The translations under genes and the position numbers were made by a program. A model generated the notes under the pieces. It was not told the origin of the DNA, ran no database searches, and was given only the letters and a program-made list of their open reading frames with translations. This document shows, one piece after another, positions 1,365-21,130 of a stretch of 28,253 nucleotides of DNA. Location of the stretch: UHGV virus genome UHGV-0121368; one strand, written 5' to 3'. The DNA comes from a virus. The stretch's first letter is position 1, and every line of letters begins with the position of its first letter.

Positions 1365-1636
1365 GCATTCGTATTGAAATTGGCGAACGTTATGTCGTTA
1401 CCAGTGACAGCTTTCAGTTTATTCTCCACGAGAAAAAGAGAGCGGAAAGCGGTAAAAACGCCGGTCAGGAATGGCTGGCGGTGGTTGGTTATTACCCGAA
1501 ATTAAGCCAGCTCGTTTCCGGCCTGATGCATCACGATATTCTGACCGGAAGCGCAAAGTCTTTTGCTGATTTAAACGCGCAGGTTGAGCAACTCAGCAGG
1601 CGTTGTTCAGAGGCTTTTGGCTCACATGGCCGTTAA
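1361..1636 (+). CDS. Hypothetical early-region protein (P2 orf83 position), 91 aa
   Basis: ORF overlaps the start of A by 11 nt; position matches P2 orf83. Confidence 0.5.
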   Translation: MSIRIEIGERYVVTSDSFQFILHEKKRAESGKNAGQEWLAVVGYYPKLSQLVSGLMHHDILTGSAKSFADLNAQVEQLSRRCSEAFGSHGR

Positions 1637-3893
1637 AGCCTCAGGGCGTTTTGTCCCTCCGTCAGCATTTGCCGCAGGCACCGGTAAGGCGTTTACTGGT
1701 GCTTATGCATGGAACGCGCCACGCGAGGCTGTCGGGCGCGAAAGACCCCTTACACGTGACGAGATGCGTCAGGTGCAAGGTGTTTTATCCACGATTAACC
1801 GCCTGCCTTACTTTTTGCGCTCGCTGTTTACTTCACGCTATGACTACATCCGGCGCAATAAAAGTCCGGTACACGGGTTTTATTTCCTCACATCCACTTT
1901 TCAGCGTCGTTTATGGCCGCGCATTGAGCGCGTGAATCAGCGCCATGAAATGAACACCGACGCGTCGTTGCTGTTTCTGGCAGAGCGTGACCACTATGCG
2001 CGCCTGCCTGGAATGAATGACAAGGAGCTGAAAAAGTTTGCCGCCCGTATCTCATCGCAGCTTTTCATGATGTATGAGGAACTCTGCGATGCATGGGTTG
2101 ATGCGCATGGTGAAAAAGAATCGCTGTTTACGGATGAGGCGCAGGCGCATCTGTATGGTCATGTTGCTGGCGCTGCACGTGCTTTCAATATTTCCCCGCT
2201 CTACTGGAAAAAATACCGTAAAGGACAGATGACCACGAGGCAGGCATATTCTGCCATTGCCCGCCTGTTTAACGATGAGTGGTGGATTAGTCAGCTTAAA
2301 GGCCAGCGTATGCGCTGGCATGAAGCGTTACTGATAGCTGTCGGGGAGGTCAATAAAGACCGTTCTCCTTATGCCAGTAAACACGCCATTCGTGATGTGC
2401 GTGCGCGCCGCCAGGCAAATCTGGAATTTCTTAAATCGTGTGACCTTGAAAACAGGGAAACCGGCGAGCGCATCGACCTTATCAGTAAGGTGATGGGCAG
2501 TATTTCTAATCCTGAAATTCGCCGGATGGAGCTGATGAACACCATTGCCGGTATTGAGCGTTACGCCGCTGCAGAGGGTGATGTGGGGATGTTTATCACG
2601 CTGACCGCGCCGTCAAAGTATCACCCGACACGTCAGGTAGGAAAAGGCGAAAGTAAAACCGTGCAGCTTAATCACGGCTGGAACGATGAGGCATTTAATC
2701 CAAAGGATGCGCAGCGTTATCTCTGCCGTATCTGGAGCCTGATGCGCACGGCATTCAAGGATAATGATTTACAGGTCTACGGTTTGCGTGTCGTCGAGCC
2801 ACACCACGACGGAACGCCGCACTGGCATATGATGCTTTTTTGTAATTCACGCCAGCGTAACCAGATTATCGAAATCATGCGTCGCTATGCGCTCAAAGAG
2901 GATGGCGACGAAAGAGGAGCCGCGCGAAACCGTTTTCAGGCAAAACACCTTAACCGGGGCGGTGCTGCGGGATATATCGCGAAATACATTTCAAAAAACA
3001 TCGACGGCTATGCACTGGATGGTCAGCTCGATAACGACACCGGCAGGCCGCTGAAAGACACTGCAGCGGCTGTTACCGCATGGGCGTCAACGTGGCGCAT
3101 CCCGCAATTTAAAACGGTTGGCCTGCCGACAATGGGGGCTTACCGTGAACTACGCAAATTGCCGCGCGGCGTCAGCATTGCTGATGAGTTTGACGAGCGC
3201 GTCGAGGCTGCACGCGCCGCCGCAGACAGTGGTGATTTTGCGTTGTATATCAGCGCGCAGGGTGGGGCAAATGTCCCGCGCGATTGTCAGACTGTCAGGG
3301 TCGCCCGTAGTCCGTCGGATGAAGTTAACGAGTACGAGGAAGAAGTCGAGAGAGTGGTCGGCATTTACGCGCCGCATCTCGGCGCGCGTCATATTCATAT
3401 CACCAGAACGACGGACTGGCGCATTGTTCCGAAAGTGCCGGTCGTTGAGCCTTTGACTTTAAAAAGCGGCATCGCCGCGCCTCGGAGTCCTGTCAATAAC
3501 TGTGGAAAGGTCACCGGTTGTGATACTTCGTTACCGGCTCCCACACCTTCTGAGCACGCCGCAGCAGTGCTTAATCTGGTTGATGACGGTGTTATCGAAT
3601 GGAATAACCCGGAGGTTGTGAGGGCGCTCAGGGGCGCATTAAAACACGGCCTGAGAACGCCAAATCGTCAGCAAAGAAACGGAAGCCCGTTAAAACCACA
3701 TGAAATTGCACCATCGGCCAGACTGACCCGGTCGGAAAGAATGCAAATTACCCGTATCCGCGTTGACCTTGCTCAGAACGGTATCAGGCCGCAGCGATGG
3801 GAGCTTGAGGCGTTGGCGCGCGGGGCAACAGTAATTTATGACGGTGAGCGGTTTAGTTATGCTGTAAAAGACGATTGGGTGATGTTTTCTTAA
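1626..3893 (+). CDS. A: Replication initiation protein A (rolling-circle nicking endonuclease), 755 aa
   Basis: Start moved to the ATG at 1626 (MAVKASGRFVPP...), which matches the P2 gpA N-terminus as I recall it; tandem-tyrosine region GYIAKYISKNIDGY typical of the rolling-circle initiator active site; length close to P2 A (761 aa). Confidence 0.85.
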   Translation: MAVKASGRFVPPSAFAAGTGKAFTGAYAWNAPREAVGRERPLTRDEMRQVQGVLSTINRLPYFLRSLFTSRYDYIRRNKSPVHGFYFLTSTFQRRLWPRIERVNQRHEMNTDASLLFLAERDHYARLPGMNDKELKKFAARISSQLFMMYEELCDAWVDAHGEKESLFTDEAQAHLYGHVAGAARAFNISPLYWKKYRKGQMTTRQAYSAIARLFNDEWWISQLKGQRMRWHEALLIAVGEVNKDRSPYASKHAIRDVRARRQANLEFLKSCDLENRETGERIDLISKVMGSISNPEIRRMELMNTIAGIERYAAAEGDVGMFITLTAPSKYHPTRQVGKGESKTVQLNHGWNDEAFNPKDAQRYLCRIWSLMRTAFKDNDLQVYGLRVVEPHHDGTPHWHMMLFCNSRQRNQIIEIMRRYALKEDGDERGAARNRFQAKHLNRGGAAGYIAKYISKNIDGYALDGQLDNDTGRPLKDTAAAVTAWASTWRIPQFKTVGLPTMGAYRELRKLPRGVSIADEFDERVEAARAAADSGDFALYISAQGGANVPRDCQTVRVARSPSDEVNEYEEEVERVVGIYAPHLGARHIHITRTTDWRIVPKVPVVEPLTLKSGIAAPRSPVNNCGKVTGCDTSLPAPTPSEHAAAVLNLVDDGVIEWNNPEVVRALRGALKHGLRTPNRQQRNGSPLKPHEIAPSARLTRSERMQITRIRVDLAQNGIRPQRWELEALARGATVIYDGERFSYAVKDDWVMFS

Positions 3894-3976
3894 ACTGATG
3901 GCATCATGATACATTAACAAATCTGAAGCAATGCTTTAGTAGTCGTGCATTAATAACTTATAAGGAATTATTATCG

Positions 3977-5299
3977 ATGAGTGCGTTAAGGGATGAAGTA
4001 TCTATGAAGGTTGCGTTCTCTAATGGCATGATAAACAAATTATGCAAAAGTTTTTTTTATAGTCATGGTAAGGAGCAGCCTTGTATTCAAGTCGGTAAAG
4101 CATTAGAAGATTTTGTTTTTTGGCTTGCATATAATGATGAGGAGATTGCAAAATGTGCTAGTAGGTTATTAAAAGCATATGGCCCCCAATTAGGTATAAG
4201 TGACCTTCACAATGCGAAAAGATTATTGTTAGGTTTTTGTTCTGAAGCCTTCAATCGCATTGATGCTGATTTTCTGTCGCTTAATCCTGATAAGATTTGT
4301 GTTGATGATATTATAACGCAAGTTCATAGAAAAAATCTTAGTGAGATGTTTAAGTATTATATACTTTCACGAATAAAATCCTGTCCGTATATTTATAATC
4401 TTGGGTGTGCTGGCTTTGATGGGAAGCTTGAGCTTAGAGAAAATTTATTTTTATATGGCCCGGGGCTAGGGGTGGAATTACTTTCTGATATTAAAGACAA
4501 AACTGACATCAAGGTTCCTGTTGATTTTTATGATGATGAATATATGCGGCATAAACCAATTGGGAAATATTTTCGACAGTCAAAATCCTGCTTGGTGGTG
4601 GCATATGCTTCATCAGAGGATAAAGCGGTGAAAATGTTTGATAGTTTGTTTGGAGCTTTATGTTTTGCGGTTGATAATCCTTTTGCGATTAATCGAGTTG
4701 CTGTTAATAATCTAGTTGAGTCTTTTGGTGTCGGGAAATATCATGAAAGTGAGTTTCGGGTGAATATTCCGTCTGTATATAATTTAAATATAACGGATTC
4801 AGCCTTGGCGATACTTACAAAAATACTTTCATCACCTGATAAAAGGATGTTGTCTGCTCTTTCCTTTATAGCGCACGGGTGGAGGGATGACAAACGTGAA
4901 AGGTTTTTGAATCAATTTATAGCATTGGATGCTATGTATGGAACCAATAATGGTAATAAAAATTCAATTATTGGCGGTGTTTGCAGAGATGCGGCGAAAA
5001 TTATTGATATTGATTCAAAAATAGGAATAATCTATGAGCTTAGGTGTAAGTTTGTTCATGGAGATATTTCATCGTTATCTGATAATGATAGCTATCGAAA
5101 GTTTATTGATAGCTATGGCGTGGACCCTATTGTTTCTCTTTTTGAAATTCTTAAAGAATGCGTCCTTAATTATAATGGTACTTACAAAACGCCAAAAGAT
5201 GTTGGAAAGGCAGATAGGTCTATTTGCGTTCCTGCTGAGTTGCTTCCAGCGGTTGAGAGGATGATAGCGGAATACAGTGGAGTTAAAAAAACAAACTAA
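3977..5299 (+). CDS. Unknown 440-aa accessory protein at the tin/old-equivalent locus; possible HEPN-like C-terminal region (R-x4-H-G)
   Basis: Long uninterrupted ORF in a visibly AT-rich stretch; AAGGA Shine-Dalgarno 10 nt upstream of the ATG; lies between the A stop and cos; no P-loop; motif ELRCKFVHGD at aa 354-363. Confidence 0.6.
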   Translation: MSALRDEVSMKVAFSNGMINKLCKSFFYSHGKEQPCIQVGKALEDFVFWLAYNDEEIAKCASRLLKAYGPQLGISDLHNAKRLLLGFCSEAFNRIDADFLSLNPDKICVDDIITQVHRKNLSEMFKYYILSRIKSCPYIYNLGCAGFDGKLELRENLFLYGPGLGVELLSDIKDKTDIKVPVDFYDDEYMRHKPIGKYFRQSKSCLVVAYASSEDKAVKMFDSLFGALCFAVDNPFAINRVAVNNLVESFGVGKYHESEFRVNIPSVYNLNITDSALAILTKILSSPDKRMLSALSFIAHGWRDDKRERFLNQFIALDAMYGTNNGNKNSIIGGVCRDAAKIIDIDSKIGIIYELRCKFVHGDISSLSDNDSYRKFIDSYGVDPIVSLFEILKECVLNYNGTYKTPKDVGKADRSICVPAELLPAVERMIAEYSGVKKTN

Positions 5300-5440
5300 A
5301 GATGTTCTTTTTAGCCTCGCCTGCATTAGGTGCATAAATTTGCATTCATTTTCAAATATATCTTTTGACAGCGAGCACCAGAACAGGCGCTTGCCGGGGG
5401 GATGATGCACCTGCATTAAAACCGCCCCATTAAGCGGGCG

Positions 5441-5459
5441 GGCGAGGCGGGGAAAGCAC
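5441..5459. other. cos cohesive-end sequence (GGCGAGGCGGGGAAAGCAC)
   Basis: Exact 19-nt string matching the P2/186-type cohesive end as I recall it, located between the accessory locus and the Q/P packaging genes. Confidence 0.6.
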
Positions 5460-5628: not shown

Positions 5629-6663
5629 TCAGCCGTTGTCAGTGTCCAGTGAGTAGTTTTTAAAGCGGATGACCTCCTGACCGAGCCAGCCGTTTATCTC
5701 GCGGATCCTGTCCTGTAACGGGATAAGCTCATTGCGGACAAAGACCTTTGCCACTTTCTCAATATCACCCAGCGACCCGACGTTCTCCGGCTTGCCGCCC
5801 ATCAACTGAAAAGGGATGCGGTGCGCGTCCAGCAGGTCTGCGGCGCTGGCTTTTTTGATATTAAAAAAATCGTCCTTCGTTGCCACTTCACTGAGCGGGA
5901 TAATTTTAATACCGTCGGCTTTTCCCTGTGGGGCGTAGAGAAACAGGTTTTTAAAGTTGTTGCGGCCTTTCGACTTCACCATGTTTTCGCGAAGCATTTC
6001 GATATCGTTGCGATCCTGCACGGCATCGGTGACGTACATGATGTATCCGGCATGTGCGCCGTTTTCGTAATACTTGCGGCGGAACAGCGTGGCCGACTCA
6101 TTCAGCCAGGCAGAGTTAAGGGCGCTGAGATATTCCGGCAGGCCGTACAGCTCCTGATTGATATCCGGCTCCAGCAGGTGAAACACGGAGCCGGGCGCGA
6201 AAGGTGTCGGCTCGTTGAAGGATGGCACCCACCAGTAAACATCCTCCTCCACGCCACGGCGGGTATATTTTGCCGGTGAGGTTTCCAGTCTGATGACCTT
6301 ACCGGTGGTGCTGTAACGCTTTTCCAGAAACGCATTACCGAATACCAGAAAATCCAGCACAAAGCGGCTGAAATCCTGCTGAGAAAGCCACGGGTGTGGG
6401 ATAAACGTTGAGGCCAGAATATTACGTTTGACGTAAATCGGTGAGCTGTGATGCACGGCAGCACGCAGGCTTTTTGCCAGACCGGTAAAGCTGACCGGTG
6501 GCTCATACCATCTGCCGTTACTGATGCACTCGACGTAATCCAGAATGTCACGGCGGTCGAGTACCGGCACCGGCTCACCAAAGGTGAATGCCTCCATTTT
6601 CGGGGCGCTGGCGGTCATTTTTTTTGCCGCAGGTTGCGGTGTTTTCCCTTTTTTCTTGCTCAT
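5629..6663 (-). CDS. Q: Portal protein, 344 aa
   Basis: 344-aa ORF divergent from the O/N/M capsid operon and overlapping the P stop; length and position match P2 gpQ. Confidence 0.9.
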   Translation of the reverse strand: MSKKKGKTPQPAAKKMTASAPKMEAFTFGEPVPVLDRRDILDYVECISNGRWYEPPVSFTGLAKSLRAAVHHSSPIYVKRNILASTFIPHPWLSQQDFSRFVLDFLVFGNAFLEKRYSTTGKVIRLETSPAKYTRRGVEEDVYWWVPSFNEPTPFAPGSVFHLLEPDINQELYGLPEYLSALNSAWLNESATLFRRKYYENGAHAGYIMYVTDAVQDRNDIEMLRENMVKSKGRNNFKNLFLYAPQGKADGIKIIPLSEVATKDDFFNIKKASAADLLDAHRIPFQLMGGKPENVGSLGDIEKVAKVFVRNELIPLQDRIREINGWLGQEVIRFKNYSLDTDNG

Positions 6664-16768: not shown

Positions 16769-17372
16769 TTCGCGACTGCTGCCGACCGGCTCATCACCGC
16801 TTGAAGTCGCTGCTGCAAAAGCCTGTGCGGAAATTGAAAAAACGCCGGTCAGTATTCGTGAGCTGTGGAACCCGGACACCTGCCCGGCAAATCTGCTGCC
16901 GTGGCTGGCGTGGTCATTTTCGGTTGACCGCTGGGATGATAAGTGGCCGGAAGCGACAAAACGCGCTGTTATCCGCGATGCGTATTTCATTCACTGCCAT
17001 AAGGGCACTATAGGCGCAATCCGGCGTGTGGTGGAGCCGCTCGGCTATCTGATTGAGGTGAGGGAGTGGTGGCAACTCAATGAGGAGCCGGGGACGTTCC
17101 GTATCGTTGTTGGCGTGCTTGAGCAGGGTATTACCGAGGAAATGTATCAGGAGCTGGAGCGCCTCGTTGCTGATGCAAAACCGGCAAGCCGCCATCTGAC
17201 GGGACTGGCTATCAGTTTAAGTACAACCGGCAACATTTTTGCCGGTGCGGGATGCTATCACGGCGACGCCCTGACAGTTTATCCCTACACCCCGGAGGCC
17301 ATTATTGTCGGAGGGGATTATTTCCCGGCCTCGGCCATTCATTTAATTGATAACCTGAGAGTAAACGCATGA
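16761..17372 (+). CDS. I: Baseplate protein I, 203 aa
   Basis: Overlaps the J stop and the H start; position matches P2 gpI (recalled as 176 aa, so here somewhat longer). Confidence 0.75.
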   Translation: MSDSRLLPTGSSPLEVAAAKACAEIEKTPVSIRELWNPDTCPANLLPWLAWSFSVDRWDDKWPEATKRAVIRDAYFIHCHKGTIGAIRRVVEPLGYLIEVREWWQLNEEPGTFRIVVGVLEQGITEEMYQELERLVADAKPASRHLTGLAISLSTTGNIFAGAGCYHGDALTVYPYTPEAIIVGGDYFPASAIHLIDNLRVNA

Positions 17373-18781
17373 CAGTGAAATACTACGCCATTCTGACTAA
17401 TCAGGGCGCAGCACGGCTGGCTAACGCGACGATGCTTGGCAGTAAGCTGAATCTGACGCAAATGGCCGTTGGTGATGCGAATGGTGTCTTGCCGACACCA
17501 GACCCGGCACAGACAAAACTGATTAACCAGAAACGCATCGCGCCGCTGAATCTTCTGAGTGTTGACCCGAACAACCAGAGCCAGATTATTGCGGAGCAAA
17601 TTATCCCTGAGAACGAGGGTGGATTCTGGATCCGTGAGATTGGGCTTTATGATGATGAAGGCGTACTCATTGCGGTGGCGAACTGCCCGGAAACGTACAA
17701 ACCGCAGTTACAGGAAGGCAGCGGTCGTACCCAGACTATCCGCATGATTCTGGTTGTCACGAATACCGAAGCTATTACGCTGAAAATCGACCCGTCGGTG
17801 GTACTGGCGACCCGTAAATACGTGGATGATAAAGTCCTGGAATTAAAGCTGTATGTGGATGACCAGATGAGAAACCACATTGCCGCACAGGATCCTCATA
17901 CCCAGTATGCACAGAAACATAATCCGACATTTACCGGAGAACCAAAAGCGCCGACGCCTGCCGCAGGAAATAACACCACGCGGATTGCGACCACTGCGTT
18001 TGTACAGGCCGCTATTACCGCTCTGATTAACGGTGCCCCTGACACGCTGGACACACTGAAAGAAATTGCCGCAGCTATCAACAATGACCCGAAATTCAGT
18101 ACCACCATTAACAATGCGCTGGCAGGTAAACAACCGCTGGACAATACGCTGACTCATTTGAGTGGAAAGGATGTAGCTGGTCTTCTCACATACCTTGGTT
18201 TGGGAGAAGGCTCTGCATTACCTGTTGGTGTCCCTGTTCCGTGGCCTTCAGCCACTCCGCCAACAGGCTGGCTGAAATGCAATGGTGCGGCTTTTTCTGC
18301 TGAAGAATACCCGGAACTGGCAAAGGCTTACCCGACAAATAAATTGCCAGATTTACGTGGTGAGTTTATTCGTGGCTGGGATGACGGGCGAGGGATTGAT
18401 GGGGGGCGCATACTTCTCAGTTGTCAGAGTTTTGCTTTCCAGGACCATGCGCACGCTCTGCCAACCGGAGTGGGTAATCCGTCATACCAGATGGAAAGCG
18501 ATATCTATACGGTTTTCAACGATGAACCAGAAATACCCAGTGCGGTCCTGAGTCCATCGTCGTCAGGAACATCATGGGACGCAACCAGTAGGGCAGACAA
18601 GGTAATCCTTTATCGCAAGGACCTTTCACCAACAGGTAATAACAACGAAATAGCGCCCGGATTACCACCATTCAGGACTTACAGGGCATCGACCTCAGAC
18701 GGTGTTACTCATCCGTCCGTGTACGCATCTGAAACCCGTCCGCGCAACATTGCATTTAACTACATCGTGAGGGCTGCATAA
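17369..18781 (+). CDS. H: Tail fibre protein H, 470 aa in the current orientation of the invertible segment
   Basis: Tail-fibre-like N-terminus (MTVKYYAILTNQGAARLANATMLGSKLNLTQMAVGDANG...); the C-terminal 194 aa lie inside the invertible segment. Confidence 0.85.
   Translation: MTVKYYAILTNQGAARLANATMLGSKLNLTQMAVGDANGVLPTPDPAQTKLINQKRIAPLNLLSVDPNNQSQIIAEQIIPENEGGFWIREIGLYDDEGVLIAVANCPETYKPQLQEGSGRTQTIRMILVVTNTEAITLKIDPSVVLATRKYVDDKVLELKLYVDDQMRNHIAAQDPHTQYAQKHNPTFTGEPKAPTPAAGNNTTRIATTAFVQAAITALINGAPDTLDTLKEIAAAINNDPKFSTTINNALAGKQPLDNTLTHLSGKDVAGLLTYLGLGEGSALPVGVPVPWPSATPPTGWLKCNGAAFSAEEYPELAKAYPTNKLPDLRGEFIRGWDDGRGIDGGRILLSCQSFAFQDHAHALPTGVGNPSYQMESDIYTVFNDEPEIPSAVLSPSSSGTSWDATSRADKVILYRKDLSPTGNNNEIAPGLPPFRTYRASTSDGVTHPSVYASETRPRNIAFNYIVRAA
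18183..18208. repeat. Left 26-bp Hin/Gin-type crossover site (TTCTCACATACC-TT-GGTTTGGGAGAA) inside H
   Basis: The 12-bp half-site GGTTTGGGAGAA is the exact inverted repeat of TTCTCCCAAACC at 19869..19880; overall layout resembles hix/gix sites (12-bp half-site, 2-bp core, 12-bp half-site). Confidence 0.65.
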
Positions 18782-19386
18782 TGGCGAAAGCAAAATTAAA
18801 CAGTGCGTTTATTGCCACCGTGGCAGGAGAAATCACTGTGTACAACTACCGGGGCGACACCCGCGAATACATATCCTCATCGCTTGAGTATCTGCCTGTG
18901 GGGGTGGGTATTCCTGCCAATTCCTGTACCGATGCGCCCGGCACACATAAGGCTGGTTATGCAATCTGCCGTTCTGCAGATTTTAACTCATGGGAATATG
19001 TGCCAGACCATCGCGGTGAAATTGTCTATGGCATCGAAACGGGGGAATCAAAAGAAATTACTGTGCCGGGGGATTACCCTGAAAATACGACCACTTTTGC
19101 CCCATTAACGCCATACGATAAATGGGATGGTGAGAAATGGGTAACAGATACCGAGGCACAGCATAGCGCCGCAGTAGATGCAGCAGAAGTACAGCGCCAG
19201 TCTCTGATTGATGCTGCTATGGCTTCCATCAGTCTGATTCAGCTGAAATTGCAGGCCGGACGTAAACTGACGCAGGCAGAAACAACCCGCCTTAACGCTG
19301 TGCTGGATTACATTGACGCGGTGACGGCAATAGATACCAGCACCGCGCCTGATATTATTTGGCCTGTATTCCCTGAGACTGATTAA
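18781..19386 (+). CDS. G: Tail fibre assembly chaperone, 201 aa
   Basis: ATG overlaps the H stop (TAATG); C-terminal motif DTSTAPDIIWPVFP typical of Tfa-family chaperones. Confidence 0.8.
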   Translation: MAKAKLNSAFIATVAGEITVYNYRGDTREYISSSLEYLPVGVGIPANSCTDAPGTHKAGYAICRSADFNSWEYVPDHRGEIVYGIETGESKEITVPGDYPENTTTFAPLTPYDKWDGEKWVTDTEAQHSAAVDAAEVQRQSLIDAAMASISLIQLKLQAGRKLTQAETTRLNAVLDYIDAVTAIDTSTAPDIIWPVFPETD

Positions 19387-19615
19387 CCTCAATCAGTATT
19401 GGTTCGCCTTTCTCATTAATTGTTAGCTCCATGCCCTGAGGAATTTCTGTCATAGTAAAAAACCAGTTGTCCTCCGGTAATTCAATAGCCCCGGTCACGT
19501 CATGAAGACCGGGGATTACTTCAGTCAAAGTAACTGGATTAAACAGGCGCACAATAAACCCTCCATGAAAAAGCATTTGATGATGGTCTGCCGTCGTACA
19601 TCTGGCAGCGGGCAT
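19355..19615 (-). CDS. Small ORF (86 aa) downstream of the alternative H cassette; possible alternative chaperone, or spurious
   Basis: Minus-strand ORF inside the invertible segment; overlaps the alternative H cassette and the 3' end of G; lacks the Tfa C-terminal motif. Confidence 0.2.
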   Translation of the reverse strand: MPAARCTTADHHQMLFHGGFIVRLFNPVTLTEVIPGLHDVTGAIELPEDNWFFTMTEIPQGMELTINEKGEPILIEVNQSQGIQAK

Positions 19616-19880
19616 AAAAGCCGGTATTTGTTACCTGATCATCCACGATCATTGAAACGTGAACATTATTAGGTGTGCTCTCGTAATCCGTTCTTATTCT
19701 TTCTGCGATACTGATAAAACGTGAAAGTTTAGGCAGTGCAATTGGGTAAACGACTTTAGCCAGTCCATTATCATTAGATCCACCGGTTCCAAATACTTCT
19801 ATTGCACCATCTGACCAGCGTACCCATGCACCATTGGCATTAGCTCCTCGCTGAATGACATATCTGGCTTCTCCCAAACC
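19539..19880 (-). CDS. Alternative tail-fibre C-terminal cassette (about 113 aa), silent in the current orientation
   Basis: The minus-strand frame reads G-L-G-E across the crossover half-site exactly as H does, so inversion fuses the constant H N-terminus (aa 1-276) in frame to ...GLGEARYVIQRGANANGAWVRW...; no own start codon or promoter. Confidence 0.55.
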   Translation of the reverse strand, partial: GLGEARYVIQRGANANGAWVRWSDGAIEVFGTGGSNDNGLAKVVYPIALPKLSRFISIAERIRTDYESTPNNVHVSMIVDDQVTNTGFYARCQMYDGRPSSNAFSWRVYCAPV

Positions 19881-19894
19881 AACGTTTTATGGAA
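19869..19894. repeat. Right 26-bp Hin/Gin-type crossover site (TTCTCCCAAACC-AA-CGTTTTATGGAA)
   Basis: Inverted partner of the site at 18183..18208; 14 of the first 14 positions are identical to the reverse complement of the left site. Confidence 0.65.
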
Positions 19895-19982
19895 TCGGTT
19901 AAATATGATGTTGAAAGAAGGGAATGTTTTAGTATTGATTGTTAGATAAAAATGGAAAGTGCTGATTGTCACGGTATATTTT

Positions 19983-20014
19983 AAGATGGTAACACCAAAT
20001 GGTGCTACCATCTT
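19983..20014. terminator. 14-bp stem-loop (AAGATGGTAACACC-AAAT-GGTGCTACCATCTT), possible bidirectional terminator
   Basis: Near-perfect inverted repeat with one G-U-compatible mismatch, followed on the plus strand by TATTAGTT; lies between the right crossover site and the 105-aa ORF stop. Confidence 0.4.
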
Positions 20015-20020
20015 TATTAG

Positions 20021-20338
20021 TTATCTGTTCCTTCTGAGGATTCCGCTACTCCCTTGTGTTGTAGGGTTTGATTTTTTCCAATAATGATAACCTTGTGATG
20101 TAATCCTTAGAGAGTCAGTATCTACACTCCATCCATCAATACTTTCAGGAGAACCATCAAAGATTACCTTTCCTGTAAGATACCCATCGTCATGCAGAAA
20201 GGCGATATATCCATAAACTTCTTTTAAATCACCAATTTCATTGACCAGGCGTTCCCACGCTTGAGCAGTGATTCTCTCTGGATAGGCTTCGACAAAATAT
20301 TTCAGTGTGGTAGTTTTTTTATTGGTATCGATGTTCAT
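20021..20338 (-). CDS. Unknown 105-aa protein in the Z/fun-equivalent variable locus
   Basis: Minus-strand ORF in an AT-rich island between the invertible segment and the invertase gene; no recognisable motif. Confidence 0.45.
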   Translation of the reverse strand: MNIDTNKKTTTLKYFVEAYPERITAQAWERLVNEIGDLKEVYGYIAFLHDDGYLTGKVIFDGSPESIDGWSVDTDSLRITSQGYHYWKKSNPTTQGSSGILRRNR

Positions 20339-20536
20339 CAGATTTTCCTTTTATTGAGGTCAACATATCTTACCATACTTAATTGATTCACATGGGAATG
20401 CTAAGTGGGCTATGTATCCACTATCAGTAAATATTCTTATCCTGCAAGATTATTGTAATTGAGTGCTTCATAGTCTTGTCCGCTTGTACATATATAGATA
20501 ATTCTGTGTCATTATTCTGTTTTTATAGGGATTTTT

Positions 20537-21130
20537 ATGCATATAGGTTATGTTCGTGTATCAACAAATGACCAGAACACGGAATTGCAGCGTAACGCGC
20601 TGGAGTGCGCAGGATGTGAGCTGATTTTTGAGGATAAAATCAGCGGCACGAAGTCCGATCGACCGGGACTGAAAAAACTGCTCAGAACATTATCAGCAGG
20701 TGACACTCTGGTAGTCTGGAAGCTGGACAGGCTGGGGCGTAGTATGCGGCATCTGGTCATTCTGGTTGAGGAACTGCGCGAACGCGGTGTTAATTTTCGC
20801 AGCCTGACGGATGCCATTGATACCAGCACGCCGATGGGGCGTTTTTTCTTTCATGTGATGGGGGCCCTGGCTGAAATGGAACGAGAACTCATTGTCGAGC
20901 GGACTCGGGCCGGGCTGGAAGTGGCCAGAGCCAAAGGTCGTATTGGTGGCAGACGTCCTAAACTCACCACGAGTGAGTGGGAGCAGGCCGGGCGTTTGCT
21001 GGCTGCAGGGGAGTCACGTCAACGCGTGGCACTGATTTTTGATATTGGTCTGTCCACGCTCTATAAAAAATTTCCCTCATCAGCGACAAAGAATAAATTG
21101 TGTCATCCCTTAGCCAACCGGGACAAATAG
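20537..21130 (+). CDS. Serine DNA invertase (Hin/Gin/Pin/Cin family), 197 aa
   Basis: N-terminal catalytic motif IGYVRVSTNDQ with the nucleophilic Ser near position 9-10; LVVWKLDRLGRS and GRFFFHVMGALAEMERELIVERT blocks; C-terminal HTH (GLSTLYKKFP); closely resembles Hin as I recall it. Confidence 0.9.
   Translation: MHIGYVRVSTNDQNTELQRNALECAGCELIFEDKISGTKSDRPGLKKLLRTLSAGDTLVVWKLDRLGRSMRHLVILVEELRERGVNFRSLTDAIDTSTPMGRFFFHVMGALAEMERELIVERTRAGLEVARAKGRIGGRRPKLTTSEWEQAGRLLAAGESRQRVALIFDIGLSTLYKKFPSSATKNKLCHPLANRDK

Follow-up and report, generated by a model that had tools for sequence, protein, structure and literature searches.

A solitary gene in the old/tin hotspot of a P2-like prophage encodes a putative ApeA-type HEPN protein

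The window, a stretch of 28,253 nucleotides from the virus genome UHGV-0121368, contains an open reading frame (ORF) at positions 3977-5299 (plus strand, stop codon included) that is translated into a protein of 440 residues, referred to below as the cargo protein. An earlier note, made from the nucleotide sequence, had pointed to an R-x4-H-G motif in this protein as a sign of a HEPN-like RNase fold in its C-terminal region. The question raised by the locus is what kind of protein a P2-like prophage carries at this position, and how much a motif of six or seven residues can say about it.

The HEPN call for the cargo protein is not new. PGAP gives an identical protein, WP_053264581.1, the RefSeq name 'HEPN domain-containing protein', and Rousset et al. 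2022, using their own pipeline, list the cargo protein at the P2 hotspot as 'HEPN_Apea' in their Table S5A, so that the inference is already public. No experiment on the protein or its family was found in the literature, and it is not among the systems assayed by Rousset et al. A full-text literature search returned no mention of WP_053264581.1, and the parts of the DefensePredictor supplements that were covered contain neither its accession nor its sequence. The 'Putative HEPN' system of plasmid pFR103, which Rousset et al. did assay, has a different sequence and was ruled out as the cargo protein. The only part of the protein without precedent is its N-terminal 260 residues.

The gene and its surroundings

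The cargo gene sits at the old/tin position of a P2-like prophage. This position is a hotspot that holds interchangeable anti-phage systems, many of them validated (Rousset et al. 2022, Vassallo et al. 2022; PMC9122126, PMC9519451), and according to Rousset et al. it adjoins cos. In the window the left border of the hotspot is formed by gpA, the P2-type replication endonuclease (1584-3893, plus strand, start codon uncertain; Pfam Phage_GPA, E 4e-123, and RefSeq), and the right border by gpQ, the portal protein (5629-6663, minus strand; Pfam Phage_portal and RefSeq). Gene gpQ and, beyond it, the terminase gene gpP lie downstream of the cargo gene on the opposite strand. An exact string match placed the 19-mer GGCGAGGCGGGGAAAGCAC, which we take to be the P2-type cos cohesive end, at positions 5441-5459. 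Because this is 142 bp 3' of the stop codon of the HEPN gene, the packaging site follows immediately on the cargo gene. It is the sole gene between gpA and cos/gpQ, and no partner ORF is visible in the gpA-gpQ interval of the window. As judged by Pfam, what remains of the window is a P2-like late region with Ogr at its end.

The GC content of the cargo ORF is about 35% as against about 52-58% in its flanks, which is typical for horizontally swapped hotspot cargo. Along positions 3800-5400 the trough is sharp: values of 33-37% are limited to the cargo ORF, and the flanking P2 genes are at 52-60%. The flanks are found in 2160 of 5426 complete E. coli genomes, and the whole segment with the cargo gene in 46 of them (about 1%). 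A tblastn search of 50,697 GenBank phage records gave no match to the cargo protein. It thus appears that no sequenced phage isolate encodes the HEPN cargo, though those 46 complete E. coli genomes have it in P2-like prophages.

The exact start of the protein may need revision. In an alignment of 25 close homologues the first residue of most sequences aligns with M10, which is encoded by a putative alternative start codon, the ATG at position 4004 (plus strand). Residues 1-7 have pLDDT values below 50 in the AlphaFold model. The start at 3977 may therefore be 27 nucleotides too far upstream, and, since most homologues begin where M10 does, all residue numbers given here could drop by 9. A promoter scan of the 83-bp spacer between gpA and the cargo gene found no sigma-70-like promoter; the gene may therefore share a transcript with gpA or depend on a non-consensus promoter.

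The cargo protein is 99% identical to a sequence cluster of 398 members (P0001), and its sole match among PHROGs is PHROG 23812, of unknown function. A word-indexed search yielded 24 full-length relatives with 45-99% identity from E. coli, Citrobacter, Enterobacter, Serratia, Vibrio, Shewanella, Pseudoalteromonas and Idiomarina; a second such search, with the profile of alignment A2, added one fragment and nothing else. HMMER, run exhaustively against 1.84 billion cluster representatives, returned 121 proteins, most of them 380-460 residues long and aligned chiefly over residues ~265-400 of the cargo protein. A search for related loci with alignment A1 found six species-representative genomes only.

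The homologues are situated in defence islands or at the same hotspot. The Enterobacter homologue (62% identity) occupies the same hotspot in another P2-like prophage. Next to the homologue of Vibrio splendidus (49%) there are genes for an HNH_5 protein, a HEPN_RES_NTD1-RES protein, a CBASS pair (a SAVED protein and a DncV-like nucleotidyltransferase) and a group II intron reverse transcriptase. In Pseudoalteromonas the homologue shares an integrase-bounded island with genes for a Schlafen/AlbA_2 protein and for a DEAD/ResIII helicase.

In three different loci, of Vibrio or metagenomic origin, the HEPN homologue is found between the same two genes, an upstream ORF of 222 residues without a Pfam match and a downstream gene for an HNH_5 protein of 374 residues (L002, 7079-10521; L003, 7042-10484; L004, 349-3791). 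This arrangement could be a conserved three-gene cassette or just a shared mobile segment; neither neighbour is present at the E. coli, Enterobacter or Pseudoalteromonas loci. In three marine loci, a short ORF of the Phage_integrase family (198 residues) comes just after either the HEPN gene or the HEPN-HNH pair (L003, 10775-11371; L004, 4082-4678; L005, 9379-9975), which hints at a small recombinase-associated cassette.

Elsewhere in the window, a serine invertase gene (Resolvase and HTH_7 domains; 20537-21130, plus strand) adjoins H (17369-18781), the gene of the tail fibre, and G (18781-19386), an assembly gene. There are two unannotated minus-strand ORFs at 19539-19877 and 20021-20338. An 18-nucleotide inverted repeat, 94% complementary, has one copy inside H (18192-18209) and the other at 19868-19885. 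Positions 17369-21130 look like an invertible tail-fibre segment, associated with host-range switching, at the second P2 hotspot, Z/fun.

The motif and the C-terminal domain

The motif is encoded as the earlier note had it. Codons AGG TGT AAG TTT GTT CAT GGA GAT at positions 5042-5065 (plus strand) specify R356-C-K-F-V-H361-G362-D363, with AGG at 5042 (R356) and CAT at 5057 (H361) both in frame with the ATG at 3977, and thus within the 440-residue ORF. The local protein sequence is IIYELRCKFVHGDISS. This Rx4H catalytic signature is the sole Rx4-6H of the protein. By itself it has no significance, because shuffled versions of the cargo protein often contain one: among 20,000 shuffles, 28% had at least one Rx4H and 63% at least one Rx4-6H, a result that bears out the caution, voiced with the original proposal, that so short a motif may arise by chance. 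At least one Rx4HG was present in 1.9% of the same shuffles.

The significance of the motif comes from its conservation. Among the 25 close homologues (45-99% identity) neither R356 nor G362 varies, and H361 is kept in 24, the remaining sequence having a tyrosine. An alignment of 86 distant sequences, with 13-50% identity to the cargo protein and a mean column identity of 21%, has the arginine in 85 of 85 and the histidine in 85 of 85 sequences, and the glycine in 84 of 86. Only five columns of this alignment reach 90% or more, namely D318, R356, H361, G362 and P384. The motif arginine and histidine are also invariant in an alignment of 44 domain sequences. Since both residues are retained throughout at such low mean identity, the Rx4H motif is a defining feature of a diverged superfamily, the consensus of which reads R..ALE(Y/F)...W.....ERF....IALDALFG......SI..GV.........R...L..LR..(L/V).HG.......Y..Y...(F/Y)..DP..D. 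The residue following the motif arginine is variable. It is Cys357 in the cargo protein, and asparagine (22), cysteine (17), alanine (16) or serine (13) in the distant alignment. Asparagine, aspartate or histidine is usual at this position in HEPN domains, and only about a quarter of the superfamily members have such a typical residue.

The second conserved site is D318 (codon at 4928-4930, plus strand), an acidic residue closing helix 2, within the sequence IALDA(L/M)(F/Y)G. Its column contains aspartate in 81 and glutamate in 5 of the 86 distant sequences, and it aligns with the invariant E389 of ApeA, in the motif WIALESL.

The AlphaFold model of the full-length protein (pLDDT 80.9) is mixed α/β in its N-terminal half and all-helical in its C-terminal part. 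Three regions can be distinguished, all on the plus strand. The N-terminal region, residues 1-260 (3977-4756), is the mixed α/β part and a putative sensor or regulatory domain. It is followed by the predicted HEPN domain, residues ~268-401 (4778-5179), the model of which has a pLDDT of 91.3, and by a low-confidence tail, residues 402-440 (5180-5296), with two short strands and one helix. The tail is missing or variable in several homologues. The helices of the HEPN domain are H1 (289-300), H2 (306-321), H3 (345-360) and H4 (384-398), with insert helices at 328-338 and 371-380.

HEPN domains are defined as four-helix up-down bundles, often with an insert between H2 and H3, that have Rx4-6H where H3 ends and the H3-H4 loop begins and a second conserved acidic residue in helix 2 (PMC3710099). 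The modelled domain is a four-helix bundle in which the last turn of helix 345-360 contains R356, and the next loop opens with H361-G362. D318 closes helix 306-321, and the short helix 328-338 runs between this helix and the motif helix. The expectation that a HEPN-like helical bundle would surround the motif has thus held. The position suggested for the motif, the start of helix 4, is slightly off, because R356 ends helix 3 and the following residues begin the loop. The closest structural neighbours are Csm6 (8jbc; 6.8), YutE, AF0298, TT1696, the HEPN domain of sacsin, the HEPN toxin 7ae2 and ST0689; a next group comprises AbiA, Csm6 (6tug), Csx1, LAS1L, AbiV and LsoA. A Foldseek comparison of the full-length model with the PDB gave nothing under E 0.6. 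From the predicted structure and the conservation of the motif, together with the remote resemblance to ApeA described below, the C-terminal domain very likely has a HEPN fold, as first supposed from the motif.

The whole cargo protein had no match in Pfam (up to E 10), NCBIfam or PADLOC, and nothing recurrent was found when the 86 distant homologues were compared with Pfam, NCBIfam, PADLOC and PHROGs. Among the C-terminal domains of 44 distant relatives, four matched Pfam HEPN_RiboL-PSP (best E 8.6e-5) and two HEPN_MAE_28990, the only Pfam families matched by more than one of them, and one matched HEPN_Apea (E 0.0064). In searches of PDB sequences, the full-length A1 profile had no matches, and the full-length A2 profile had weak ones to a phosphoglycerate mutase and a portal protein, which were dismissed as spurious. 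With the domain profile, the first match among all PDB sequences was Ec4ApeA (9hxm, E 0.022). The alignment with it falls into two colinear parts, one in the H1/H2 region and the other at 'LY.LRN.(I/L).H'.

The domain was also compared by hhalign with a profile of 35 full-length ApeA proteins, including Ec1ApeA, gathered by a protein search. The alignment, with a probability of 75% and an E-value of 2.5e-5, covers H1, H2 and the following helix and ends at an extra segment of about 80 residues in ApeA (416-496 of Ec1ApeA), just upstream of the catalytic helix. When this segment was excised, an exploratory step of the analyst's choice, the probability rose to 94-95% (E 2e-8), and 'Ri..L..LR..llHG' was paired with ApeA 'QlrRIYr.RNkI.H.G', RxxxxH lying on RxxxxH. 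Ten column-shuffled controls all remained at or below 3.3% probability. The motif thereby aligns with ApeA RNKIxH, which holds R521, a residue essential in Ec1ApeA. These profile alignments suggest that the domain is homologous, albeit remotely, to the HEPN core of ApeA. Residues 1-260 matched nothing, the N-terminal and Mid domains of ApeA included.

Proposed function and its alternatives

HEPN proteins characteristically dimerise, creating a composite active site, and their RNase activity is metal-independent. Judged by its conserved residues, the HEPN domain of the cargo protein is quite probably an active RNase, with a predicted active site made of R356 and H361, where helix 3 ends, and D318 of helix 2. 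The HEPN domains of two protomers would pair to form a composite RNase site, as in other HEPN RNases. The N-terminal region of about 260 residues would keep the nuclease silent until a cue from an infecting phage switches it on. When active, the enzyme would cut cellular RNA, and the resulting arrest of translation would abort the infection, shielding the lysogen population and its P2-like prophage from competing phages. Cleavage of tRNA in the anticodon loop has been shown for ApeA, DARNA, HepS and PrrC. Anticodon loops would be the likeliest target here too, because the three single-protein HEPN defences that have been studied mechanistically (ApeA, DARNA and HepS) cut them; as an argument from analogy, this makes tRNA a tentative choice. 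Taken as a whole, the cargo protein is probably a self-contained HEPN RNase of the abortive-infection type with an N-terminal gate, protecting lysogens, and a role in phage defence as such has a reasonable likelihood.

Other explanations of the same observations differ in how far they depart from this one. The closest to it holds that the cargo protein is a true member of the ApeA family, highly diverged and shortened. ApeA is indeed the best match of the HEPN domain both in sequence and in profile comparisons, and the order of domains, a non-catalytic N-terminus followed by a C-terminal HEPN, is shared. Rousset et al. 2022 (Table S5A) applied the label HEPN_Apea to exactly this protein. With a truncated ApeA alignment, hhalign even extended weakly upstream of H1, at a probability of 45%. 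The features that delimit ApeA proper speak against membership, however: the cargo protein is below the thresholds of the curated models, has no counterpart of the N-terminal and Mid domains, and differs in size and in having a HEPN domain that is not split. True membership is therefore unlikely. At the other extreme, the motif might be a chance occurrence in an unrelated helical protein. The frequency of Rx4H in the shuffles and the failure of the cargo protein itself to match Pfam would fit such an accident, but the tests described above refute it, and we regard it as scarcely credible.

Between these extremes are two explanations that accept the HEPN fold. The protein could be a HEPN toxin outside anti-phage defence, serving in prophage addiction or stabilisation, or acting against P4-type satellites or other mobile elements, with its controlling factor encoded elsewhere. 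Such a role is quite improbable. There is no adjoining antitoxin-sized ORF or MNT gene, the homologues are single genes in different types of element, beside CBASS, RES and HNH defence genes, and the N-terminal region, being large and conserved, is consistent with a regulator built into the protein. The HEPN domain might alternatively have no nuclease activity and be a binding or regulatory module, like the nucleotidyltransferase-associated HEPN proteins or sacsin, the protein then having some other role in the prophage. Non-catalytic lineages characteristically lose Rx4-6H (PMC3710099), whereas in this very diverged superfamily the arginine and the histidine are the two most conserved residues. 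The acidic residue of helix 2 is kept as well, and no gene for a nucleotidyltransferase partner was found in the hotspot. A non-nuclease module is accordingly a very improbable reading. The self-contained, gated RNase thus remains the preferred interpretation.

The general picture is unchanged by this conclusion: hotspot, fold and probable mode of action were all known before, and the protein already carries a HEPN label in databases. What the family may add concerns the N-terminal region. Single-protein HEPN nucleases recur in bacterial immunity, and ApeA, DARNA, HepS and DS-11 combine the same RNase fold with different sensors. The cargo family adds another pairing, that of a pared-down ApeA-type HEPN domain with an N-terminal domain that has no detectable relatives. 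It is conceivable, as a speculative extension, that the N-terminal ~260 residues are an undescribed infection-sensing domain that gates a minimal, insertion-free ApeA-type HEPN nuclease. If so, the family would comprise compact relatives of ApeA that have another trigger, responding to a new phage cue or using a new sensing principle. If the protein is defensive, its trigger would widen the catalogue of infection cues, and its small size would make it a tractable model.

Comparison with known systems

The cargo gene shares with P2 old and tin its position between the replication endonuclease and cos/portal, as well as the low GC content and the swappable-cargo behaviour of that hotspot. The protein is unrelated, however, to Old, which consists of an ABC ATPase and a TOPRIM domain, or to Tin. 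It also differs from HepT, the toxin of the HepT/MntA type VII toxin-antitoxin system. HepT has about 130-140 residues and is paired with an MNT antitoxin gene, whereas the cargo gene has no partner and no MNT nucleotidyltransferase gene was found beside it in the hotspot.

HepS, from the Gifsy-1 prophage of Salmonella, is activated by a tail-tip protein and cuts tRNA anticodon loops (PMC13043305). It is a stand-alone HEPN domain of less than 250 residues, unlike the cargo protein with its N-terminal extension of 260 residues. DARNA is a single HEPN protein that is activated by ssDNA bound to phage SSB and cleaves tRNA when active (bioRxiv 10.64898/2026.02.22.705581). Like the cargo protein, which is similar in size, it is one E. 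coli protein (456 residues) in which a HEPN RNase is accompanied by a large domain without catalytic function. The architecture is reversed, however: the HEPN domain of DARNA comprises residues 1-159 and is followed by a Pds5-like helical domain that binds ssDNA, whereas the HEPN domain of the cargo protein is C-terminal. This arrangement rules out DARNA as the identity of the cargo protein, and no sequence similarity between the two was detected.

ApeA (Gao et al. 2020; Pfam HEPN_Apea, PF18739; structures such as 9hxm of Ec4ApeA) is a tRNA anticodon nuclease acting by abortive infection; it requires the arginine of its motif and is activated by deoxydinucleotides. Its authors described a split HEPN domain with insertions, and its N-terminal and Mid domains form a ligand pocket together with the HEPN domain. 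ApeA proteins have about 560-620 residues, compared to 440 in the cargo protein with its compact HEPN domain at 268-401. The N-terminal 260 residues of the latter do not match the N-terminal and Mid domains, the protein is under the threshold of both the Pfam and the PADLOC model of ApeA, and ApeA structures were not found among its structural neighbours. Nevertheless, the two have much in common. Both are encoded by a single gene carried in E. coli mobile-element hotspots, and in both a non-catalytic part at the N-terminus is followed by a HEPN domain at the C-terminus. They share R..(A/S)L.(Y/F) in H1, the acidic (W)IAL(D/E)(A/S)L in H2, the 'SII..(V/I)' helix after H2 and the catalytic (I)Y..R....H(.)G. 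Since the profile and PDB matches link the domain to ApeA whereas the features of ApeA proper are lacking, the description that suits the cargo protein best is that of an ApeA-type HEPN domain, compact and free of insertions, joined to an unrelated N-terminal region without known relatives.
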